NCBI RefSeq assembly: GCF_003334405.1
Contig: NZ_QOWM01000040.1
Length of the DNA: 2,037 nt
Strand: one strand, 5' to 3'
Origin: Escherichia coli
GTDB lineage: Bacteria; Pseudomonadota; Gammaproteobacteria; Enterobacterales; Enterobacteriaceae
Shown: positions 1-1,201 of the stretch, in pieces
Position numbering within the stretch: the first letter of the stretch is position 1
Layout of the letters: each line of letters opens with the position of its first letter
The notes under the pieces: generated by a model
The model's database searches: none
What the model was told of the DNA's origin: nothing
The model's input: the letters and a program-made list of their open reading frames with translations, nothing else
Position numbers and translations under genes: made by a program

Positions 1-846
1 AACCAGATGGACCCGGTGTACACGCCGGCGCGAAAAATCCACCTGTACCACTGCGACCATCGCGGCCTGCCGCTGGCGCTCATCAGCACGGAAGGGGCAA
101 CAGCGTGGTGCGCAGAATATGATGAATGGGGCAACCTGCTGAATGAAGAGAACCCGCATCAGCTGCAGCAGCTTATCCGGCTGCCGGGGCAGCAGTATGA
201 TGAGGAGTCCGGCCTGTATTACAACCGCCACCGCTATTATGACCCGCTGCAGGGGCGATATATCACTCAGGATCCGATTGGACTGAAGGGGGGATGGAAC
301 CTGTATGGATATCAATTGAATCCGATATCAGACATCGACCCCCTGGGTTTATCTATGTGGGAGGATGCAAAATCGGGGGCATGTACTAATGGTCTTTGCG
401 GCACACTATCCGCTATGATAGGTCCAGATAAATTTGATTCTATAGATAGCACCGCATATGGCGCCTTAAATAAAATAAATAGCCAATCTATTTGCGAAGA
501 TAAAGAGTTCGCTGGTTTAATATGTAAGGATAATAGTGGCAGATATTTCTCAACAGCACCTAACCGAGGAGAAAGAAAAGGATCATATCCATTCAATAGC
601 CCTTGCCCTAATGGTACTGAGAAAGTATCAGCTTATCATACTCATGGTGCAGATAGTCATGGAGAATATTGGGACGAAATATTTTCAGGTAAAGATGAGA
701 AAATAGTTAAAAGTAAAGATAACAATATCAAGTCATTTTATTTAGGTACGCCCAGTGGTAATTTTAAAGCAATAGATAACCACGGGAAGGAAATAACAAA
801 CAGAAAAGGATTACCTAATGTCTGCAGAGTTCATGGTAATATGTAA
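1..846 (+). CDS. rhsB: Rhs family protein, C-terminal portion (5'-partial): end of conserved Rhs core plus variable C-terminal toxin domain (CT) of unassigned fold
   Basis: Open frame from nt 1 (the gene begins upstream) to TAA at 844-846. The translation carries the Rhs core-end signature [42 protein letters not shown]. Composition drops right after the second DPxGL, from about 58% GC to about 33% GC (hand counts of sampled 60-nt stretches), as expected for a conserved core fused to a variable toxin tip. The symbol is a recollection that the 127-aa downstream ORF followed by an H-repeat matches the K-12 RhsB element; it may instead be an orthologous Rhs locus. Confidence 0.85.
271..351 (+). 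other. Rhs core/CT demarcation motif: DPIGL (271-285), 17-residue spacer, DPLGL (337-351); probable autoproteolysis and core/tip boundary
   Basis: Read directly from the translation: D89-P-I-G-L93 and D111-P-L-G-L115. In Rhs and YD-repeat proteins the DPxGL-(~18 aa)-DPxGL motif marks the end of the conserved core and lies next to the site where the C-terminal tip is released. Confidence 0.8.
806..810 (+). promoter_or_regulatory. Shine-Dalgarno (AAGGA) for the immunity gene, 7-nt spacer to ATG 818
   Basis: The sequence aaaAGGAttacctaATG is seen directly. It lies inside the 3' end of the rhs coding sequence, consistent with translational coupling. Confidence 0.55.
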
Positions 847-1201
847 AAAAATATTGTTTAGGAACTGTGTCATTGTATCTTTGTTTGTTTTTACATACAA
901 CACATGGGCGCAGTGTAATAATAATATTAAAATAATGCGCAAGTATGAAAGTGAAGGTAAATATACCGTTAGAAATTTGGTTAAAAATAAAGCTATAGCA
1001 TTGGAATTAGCTGAGATATATGTTAAGAATCGTTATGGGCAGGATGCCGCAGAAGAAGAAAAACCATACGAAATCACTGAGTTAACAACAAGTTGGGTTG
1101 TTGAAGGTACCATTCACTCAGACCAAATTGCTGGTGGGGTTTTTATTATAGAAATAGGCAAAAATGATGGGAGAATTCTGAATTTTGGCCACGGAAAATA
1201 A
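818..1201 (+). CDS. yhhH: Putative cognate Rhs immunity protein (127 aa) encoded immediately downstream of and overlapping the rhs CT
   Basis: ORF 818-1201 with an SD 7 nt upstream. It overlaps the rhs stop by 29 nt in a different frame and is AT-rich like the toxin tip, the typical arrangement of Rhs CT/immunity pairs. Length and position match my recollection of K-12 yhhH (127 aa, between rhsB and yhhI). The N-terminus [33 protein letters not shown] is hydrophobic and signal-peptide-like. In-frame alternative starts exist at 833 and 935, but neither has a comparable SD. Confidence 0.75.

Follow-up and report, generated by a model that had tools for sequence, protein, structure and literature searches.

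The Tox-JAB-2 (DUF4329) toxin domain, with Imm-NTF2-2 as its immunity partner, was described from Escherichia coli by Zhang et al. 2012 (PMC3482391). Tox-JAB-2 was placed there among the nucleic-acid-targeting toxins and a nuclease activity was suggested, and later papers, including PMC10469887, label the domain an RNase without experiments. In the literature searched, the nuclease or RNase label of the toxin rests purely on inference. The same Rhs Tox-JAB-2 and Imm-NTF2-2 pair is found in a stretch of E. coli DNA of 2,037 bases (contig NZ_QOWM01000040.1; the whole stretch is called the window below), in which the 3′ end of rhsB is followed by the immunity gene yhhH. The two accounts differ in the target of the toxin, nucleic acid in the published one and the periplasm in the one favored here. 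In E. coli K-12, yhhH and its paralogue ybbC have long been annotated as genes without a known function; Rhs-DUF4329 effectors occur widely in this species and in Salmonella. The sequence of YhhH suggests, with a probability of roughly 0.6, that translation from the ATG at position 818 yields an exported protein of about 96 residues that would block the RhsB toxin in the periplasm or envelope.

Type VI effectors with a periplasmic site of action come with periplasmic immunity proteins, such as the Tsi, Tai and Tli classes. These immunity proteins have no sequence relationship to YhhH, whose partner is a JAB-like domain encapsulated in an Rhs protein and whose export is predicted. The rule that immunity proteins are located at the site of toxin action is already well established, which makes the conceptual advance a modest one. 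When cognate immunity proteins share a conserved export signal, this is a cheap and testable pointer to an envelope target. If the pointer is correct, work on this toxin would shift to periplasmic toxicity, dsbA dependence and muropeptides, database labels would be corrected and an enzyme of the JAMM fold would join the periplasm-acting interbacterial toxins. The yhhH gene, its family, the pairing of toxin and immunity protein (PMC3482391) and the lipoprotein signal of YbbC (STEPdb) are already known. The literature searched holds no statement that YhhH is exported or that Tox-JAB-2 acts in the periplasm. The identities of the genes, the domain families, the adjacency of toxin and immunity gene and the conserved architecture of the signal are established in the present analysis.

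Gene layout and start codon of yhhH

The window is a 100% match to a chromosomal locus found in thousands of E. coli genomes. Positions 1-846 (+ strand) are the 3′ end of rhsB, comprising the end of the Rhs core and the C-terminal toxin tip; this part matches annotated rhsB at 100% in many E. coli genomes and gives Pfam hits to RHS and DUF4329. The boundary between core and tip is visible both as a DPLGL motif (337-351, +), DPxGL being an established marker of this junction, and in the composition profile, where a GC content of about 60% in the core gives way to 29-38% past about position 330. The toxin domain (DUF4329/Tox-JAB-2; 352-843, +) carries six conserved cysteines and is closed by the rhsB stop codon TAA at 844-846 (+). 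An open reading frame (ORF) of 127 amino acids at 818-1201 (+), proposed in the first-pass annotation with a start backed by a Shine-Dalgarno (SD) sequence, is indeed present and is yhhH in RefSeq (WP_001271686.1), with 127 codons running from an ATG to a TAA at 1199-1201. Codons 1-9 overlap the end of rhsB by 29 nucleotides (nt; 818-846, +). Since the SD-bearing start sits 29 nt inside the end of rhsB, translation of yhhH is probably coupled to that of the toxin gene.

The SD-like sequence AAAGGA (805-810, +) lies within the rhsB coding sequence, 7 nt 5′ of ATG818. Its duplex with the anti-SD has an energy of -5.4 kcal/mol, as against -1.7 kcal/mol at ATG833 (codon M6) and +0.9 kcal/mol at the alternative start ATG935 (codon M40; 935-937, +), which has no SD. 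The first ATG, the sequence AAAAGGA and the 7-nt spacer are kept in 5/5 orthologous loci, and the same 29-nt overlap recurs wherever the toxin gene is present (L003, L004, L005 and L006). A start at M6 was considered and set aside in favor of M1; its SD is weak, and it is unlikely as a start because codon 6 is ATA in L004. In the same locus codon 40 is TTG, which would weaken a start at M40 without excluding it. The earlier proposal that the true start is the M at 935, giving a protein of 88 amino acids, thus lacks an SD and is also at odds with the conservation described below, which begins before M40. No start-site or localization data for YhhH were found in the main text of the Ribo-RET preprint, in the supplements of the TRAINSPOTTER N-terminomics study, or in a membrane-proteome localization study and a topology study.

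The predicted export signal and its conservation

The N-terminus of YhhH can be divided into the three parts of a Sec-type signal peptide. A predicted n-region of residues 1-16 (818-865, +), identified from the sequence and carrying K10, K11 and R15 against E4, is followed by a predicted h-region, CVIVSLFVF, which spans residues 17-25 (866-892, +; Kyte-Doolittle) or reaches residue 27 if T-Y is counted. The predicted c-region TYNTWA (893-910, +) would end in a signal peptidase I (SPI) site, T29-W30-A31. Because these three residues fit the -3/-1 rule, with the cut between A31 and Q32, the predicted signal is 31 residues long; the predicted mature protein comprises residues 32-127 (911-1198, +), and homology to YbbC begins at residue 34. 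The features of a Sec/SPI signal are therefore all found, namely a positively charged n-region, a hydrophobic core within the usual length of about 7-15 residues and small uncharged residues at -3 and -1, with an n-region that is unusually long (16 residues). The signal-like N-terminus recognized in the first pass was right as to the basic n-region, the hydrophobic core and the T-W-A site, and has to be amended in its dimensions, to 31 residues rather than 33 and a core of 9-11.

The best 8-residue Kyte-Doolittle mean of the core is 3.2, which equals or exceeds that of genuine E. coli signals scored alike. When the nucleotides of codons 11-32 are shuffled, the frame stays open and a core and site of similar quality arise in only 0.06% of the products. 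The hydrophobic segment had alternatively been ascribed to read-through of the overlap region; this explanation fails, since the core (866-892) lies wholly 3′ of the rhsB stop (844-846) and the overlap comprises only codons 1-9. Among near-identical E. coli variants the signal region is nearly invariant, with 8 distinct substitutions in 31 residues, mostly of uncharged for uncharged residues. A lipoprotein signal was also considered for YhhH, the lipobox being defined as [LVI][ASTVI][GAS]C with an invariant Cys at the end of the h-region. It was rejected: in W-A-Q-C33 position -1 is Q, so that a lipobox is lacking, and orthologues have G or S in place of the Cys.

Four full-length orthologues with 65-72% overall identity were found in the homologue search (P0067, P0069, P0072 and P0074, of which P0069 is a Salmonella enterica record), and their DNA was examined as loci L002-L008. 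Examples of their N-termini are MFAESMAICKK-IFVCGLIIISLLFI-THNGWA, with DS after the predicted cut, and MFAEFMAICKK-ISIGNLAMASLFAI-THNGWA, with NG after it. All four have KK in a short basic n-region, a hydrophobic core of 14-15 residues and HNGWA before N or D, so that the -3/-1 rule is obeyed as G-W-A. Judged by sequence, these predicted signals are more canonical than that of the E. coli allele. Over residues 11-32 the orthologues share 32-55% identity with the E. coli sequence, and the ratio of nonsynonymous to synonymous substitution rates (dN/dS) is mostly 0.3-0.6 and reaches 1.06; over residues 40-127 the identity is 75-83% and the dN/dS 0.15-0.30. The ORFs contain no stops and no frame-breaking indels, the sole indel being one codon. 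Since the architecture is kept while the sequence drifts, the N-terminus behaves like a signal peptide. In a simulation, the observed number of nucleotide changes was placed randomly on the E. coli sequence and an uncharged hydrophobic core was required; frame, core and site survived in about 1.4% of trials per lineage, a figure that is indicative only because the thresholds were chosen after the data had been seen.

An immunity gene directly 3′ of a DUF4329 toxin gene, as in the window, is also seen in L004 and L009. L007 (809-1259) holds an orphan immunity gene: only the last ~31 codons of the toxin gene are left, the rest being deleted, and a 127-codon yhhH-like ORF is intact including the signal region.

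The paralogue YbbC belongs, like YhhH, to the PF15631 family, follows a DUF4329 tip and bears an N-terminal export signal. The two tips, RhsD-CT and RhsB-CT, share 52% identity, with 5/6 Cys aligned and the sixth at the C-terminus. YbbC and YhhH are 56% identical over residues 34-127, and the alignment begins at residue 34, six residues before M40. The earlier note had made the short form depend on conservation that starts only at residue 40, and the YbbC alignment does not favor that form. The N-terminus of YbbC, MKYSSIFSMLSFFILFAC, is unrelated to that of YhhH and is a lipoprotein-type signal with the lipobox L-F-A-C; among the entries of the STEPdb-derived table that accompanies the MatureP paper (PMC5468347), YBBC_ECOLI is predicted to be a lipoprotein of the outer membrane, with a LipoP signal of 17 residues. 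YhhH differs in its 31-residue SPI-type signal without a lipobox and in its 29-nt overlap with rhsB, whereas ybbC (b0498) in K-12 begins 39 nt past rhsD without any overlap. A transposon-sequencing study (PMC9948719) places the K-12 ybbC region under H-NS/StpA and finds it refractory to transposon insertion (ybbC-ylbH-ybbD, 5582-7131 of locus L013), which suggests that AT-rich tip and immunity modules are silenced. The literature on the name ybbC mostly concerns an unrelated Bacillus gene.

Word-index homologue searches yielded close relatives only, and distant ones came from an exhaustive search of 1.84 billion representatives, which gave 510 hits at E ≤ 0.001. A simple signal rule was applied to the best 143 of these; it asked that the first 45 residues contain an uncharged run of 8 residues or more and that the Kyte-Doolittle mean over 8 residues reach 1.9 or more. 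As a calibration, the rule was run on annotated MG1655 proteins, 46 in all, of which it picked out 12/13 exported, 9/10 membrane and 4/23 cytoplasmic ones. Among the best 143 of the 510 hits, 112 representatives have at least 15 residues before the equivalent of M40, and 103 of them have a hydrophobic N-terminus (27 with a strict lipobox). The count informs on the domain and not on its pairing with this toxin, because the most distant signal-bearing members checked do not adjoin a recognizable DUF4329 toxin. Two relatives are linked to such a toxin. P0117 (43% identical) has the signal peptide MITIFLFLALFIPPAIS followed by QE, and its reading frame begins at the stop codon of a complete Rhs-DUF4329 gene; the tip encoded there retains all six Cys. 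P0129, also with a signal peptide, lies downstream of a DUF4329-like Rhs tip. The sequences thus point to an Imm-NTF2-2 domain that is predominantly, not always, extracytoplasmic.

Site of toxin action and competing explanations

The RhsB tip matches Pfam PF14220 (DUF4329) with E 3.8e-39. Its membership of Tox-JAB-2 is borne out by the Pfam match, the E...H[ST]H...S...D motif and the JAB fold, and the metal-binding motif H-T-H of the JAB domain (637-645, +) is invariant in alignment A2. The six Cys are retained in relatives at ~50% identity. The predicted fold of the tip matches JAMM isopeptidases (a JAMM-like metallopeptidase fold). Residue 37 of the tip (460-462) is Gly here (AYGALNK) and Asp (AYDALNK) in nearly all other E. 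coli representatives and in the close orthologues L003 and L004. Sequence searches returned no solved structures for the RhsB tip or YhhH, and an NCBIfam hidden Markov model search gave 0 hits for either protein.

The immunity domain occupies residues 60-127 of YhhH (995-1198, +), which align with positions 1-68 of the 68 positions of the PF15631 model (E 3.4e-26) and form two helices and a four-stranded sheet. The conserved Tyr and Trp of Imm-NTF2-2 (Zhang et al. 2012, PMC3482391) are present as Y73 and W93, each at least 90% conserved in alignment A1 of 95 sequences. An AlphaFold2 (AF2) model of YhhH (predicted local distance difference test, pLDDT, 89) has a single helix over residues 4-45, which joins the signal region to the N-terminus of the mature part, then a loop, and two helices plus four strands over residues 58-125. 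A Foldseek search with this model gave no significant match. PepSY and cystatin-like inhibitor domains (the YpeB C-terminal domain and the propeptides of M4/M36 metalloproteases) resemble it in fold only, with 12-23% identity over ~65 residues, and a Pfam search of YhhH gave no PepSY hit.

In the proposed mechanism a 127-residue precursor of YhhH would be translated from ATG818, residues 1-31 would serve as a Sec-type signal and signal peptidase I would cut past T-W-A. The soluble periplasmic protein of ~96 residues would use its Imm-NTF2-2 domain to bind and block the RhsB C-terminal toxin from sister cells. If YhhH is exported, it would follow that the toxin acts in the periplasm or cell envelope. 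The cytoplasm of the producer would be spared by encapsulation of the toxin in the Rhs shell, and perhaps also by a need of the toxin, with its six conserved Cys, for three disulfide bonds. For other Rhs proteins it is established that the shell encloses the tip. From the sequences and their comparison we infer export, the cleavage position, toxin binding and the periplasmic target; the only pointers to periplasmic action of the toxin are the export signals of the immunity proteins and its own six conserved Cys. The first-pass suggestion of an exported or membrane-anchored immunity protein with an envelope target thus gains comparative evidence from the orthologues, YbbC and the toxin-linked relatives, with export itself standing as a prediction.

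As for activity, Tox-JAB-2 is more likely a periplasmic peptidase of the JAMM type than a nuclease or RNase. A broader generalization, doubtful at present, would make DUF4329/Tox-JAB-2 domains a group of disulfide-activated periplasmic JAMM isopeptidases rather than nucleases or RNases, blocked by the exported PepSY/cystatin-like proteins YhhH and YbbC, with the loop of residues 96-107 tuning specificity. One conceivable substrate, named with the same reserve, would be amide or isopeptide-like linkages in the peptidoglycan-lipoprotein sacculus.

Several observations weigh against an exported YhhH that guards the envelope. Since the SD and codons 1-9 overlap toxin codons, their conservation is confounded. 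The signal of the E. coli allele departs from the norm, with a 16-residue n-region in which R15-N16 cuts the core to 9-11 residues, and the post hoc thresholds of the simulations also count here. The distant signal-bearing relatives P0135 and P0160 lie on short contigs, with no recognizable DUF4329 toxin adjoining. P0138 (299-526 of L016) is a genuine member of 75 amino acids that has no signal and has in-frame stops just upstream; it is presumably cytoplasmic, and its existence makes a soluble short form structurally possible. The Salmonella survey PMC10469887 contains Rhs-DUF4329 effectors whose neighboring gene encodes a CdiI-domain protein without a signal, so DUF4329 proteins need not all fit the export pattern. 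Lastly, YhhH is absent, among the entries listed, from the STEPdb-derived periplasmic and lipoprotein lists (SignalP4.1/LipoP/Phobius; PMC5468347 supplement). The periplasmic list is sorted by accession, and in the part concerned P28722, P28915 and P28917 stand in sequence; a search of the listed entries of the whole table by the name YhhH was also negative. The accession of YhhH we take to be P28911. To judge from these entries, YhhH apparently received neither a periplasmic nor a lipoprotein label from the 2017 pipeline.

The rival that survives best, though it is improbable, is that the N-terminus of YhhH is an uncleaved signal anchor that holds the immunity domain on the periplasmic face of the inner membrane. 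An n-region that is long and partly hydrophobic and the single continuous helix of residues 4-45 in the AF2 model are in line with an anchor, and absence from the predicted periplasmic list would suit classification as a membrane protein. However, membrane spans are usually longer than the uncharged stretch of E. coli YhhH (9-11 residues) and its orthologues (14-15), a conserved -3/-1 site comes next in 5/5 sequences, and the paralogue YbbC uses a cleaved lipoprotein signal. An anchor would give the same periplasmic location, and hence the same envelope target, as the cleaved signal preferred here.

There is also a small chance that the signal of YhhH is ancestral and decaying, the family being exported and the E. 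coli allele weakened by R15-N16 as a silent rhsB-yhhH pair drifts without a type VI system. Consistent with decay, the orthologue core is more canonical at 14 residues, YhhH is missing from the predicted-secreted lists as far as their listed entries go, H-NS/StpA cover the paralogous ybbC region of K-12 (PMC9948719), and the adjoining genes are pseudogenes and an insertion sequence (IS) element. Decay sits poorly with the near-invariance of the signal region in E. coli (the 8 substitutions in 31 residues noted above) and with the hydrophobicity of the remaining core, whose Kyte-Doolittle mean of 3.2 is above that of most true signals in the control set.

Two isoforms, an exported one from ATG818 and a cytoplasmic one from ATG935, could between them guard both compartments. 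Both start codons are largely conserved, and the AT-rich, unstructured sequence 5′ of ATG935 could permit SD-independent initiation. Such an arrangement is very unlikely, as ATG935 has no SD and codon 40 is TTG in one orthologue, and encapsulation of the toxin in Rhs proteins makes a cytoplasmic antidote unnecessary.

Least probable of all is a solely cytoplasmic 88-amino-acid YhhH from ATG935, with codons 1-39 an untranslated leader kept open and hydrophobic by its T-richness: M40 is kept in 4/5 orthologues and in YbbC, some gene callers output this form, the Pfam domain begins only at residue 60 and a genuine signal-less member of 75 amino acids exists, the literature predicts a nucleic-acid target for Tox-JAB-2 and YhhH is not among the listed entries of the STEPdb periplasmic list, but ATG935 lacks an SD (+0.9 kcal/mol) and is TTG in L004, the 39 upstream codons remain open, in frame and signal-like at a synonymous divergence (dS) of 0.5-1.0 (p ~0.014 per lineage under free mutation), homology to YbbC, which has its own signal, starts at residue 34, and the rhsB overlap does not reach the hydrophobic core.

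Local variation and flanking genes

Variation within yhhH was counted over 32 near-identical full-length E. coli variants. It is concentrated in a hypervariable loop of residues 96-107 (1103-1138), with 23 distinct substitutions there and 6 in residues 32-95. At H100 the variants have Y, N, R, Q, P or L, which are all six amino-acid replacements available by a single-nucleotide change; at G106 they have A, S, D or C, and at G107 E, V, W or R. Some loop variants occur on 16-74 contigs, and the toxin tip is nearly invariant. The loop may be a toxin-contact and specificity surface under diversifying selection, or a local hotspot of mutation or recombination. A Chi octamer, GCTGGTGG (1130-1137, +), spans yhhH codons 105-107 within the loop. 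It is the one match found, at least one match also arises in 11/200 shuffles, and that Chi has anything to do with the local variation is speculation.

One E. coli genome carries a recombinant in which a different Cys-rich tip and the first ~29 codons of its own hydrophobic downstream gene replace window positions 331-900 (4880-5110 of L014). The junction with yhhH falls at position 901, in the c-region of the signal (LSLWAQC), and produces the chimeric protein P0055. Its other hydrophobic N-terminus was at first a candidate for independent support of export; given its recombinant origin it was treated as uninformative. The donor presumably resembles RhsC-CT and ybfB. The rhsC element, we assume, encodes YbfC. 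In the entries of the STEPdb-derived table (PMC5468347 supplement) YbfC (P28915) is predicted to be periplasmic, and export signals may be common among small ORFs 3′ of E. coli Rhs genes.

Rfam, promoter and terminator scans of the region gave nothing relevant. Downstream of yhhH, the remnant of a HEAT-repeat gene occupies 1291-1689; RefSeq has a pseudogene at ~1306-1656, named 'HEAT repeat domain-containing' or 'lyase'. It has an internal stop, TAA at 1549-1551, beyond which the reading frame resumes, and may represent an orphan gene for an immunity protein of the Imm-HEAT type that has decayed. The window ends in the start of yhhI (1797-2037; RefSeq), which encodes the ISAs1/ISEc1-family transposase ('H-repeat') that flanks the Rhs element.

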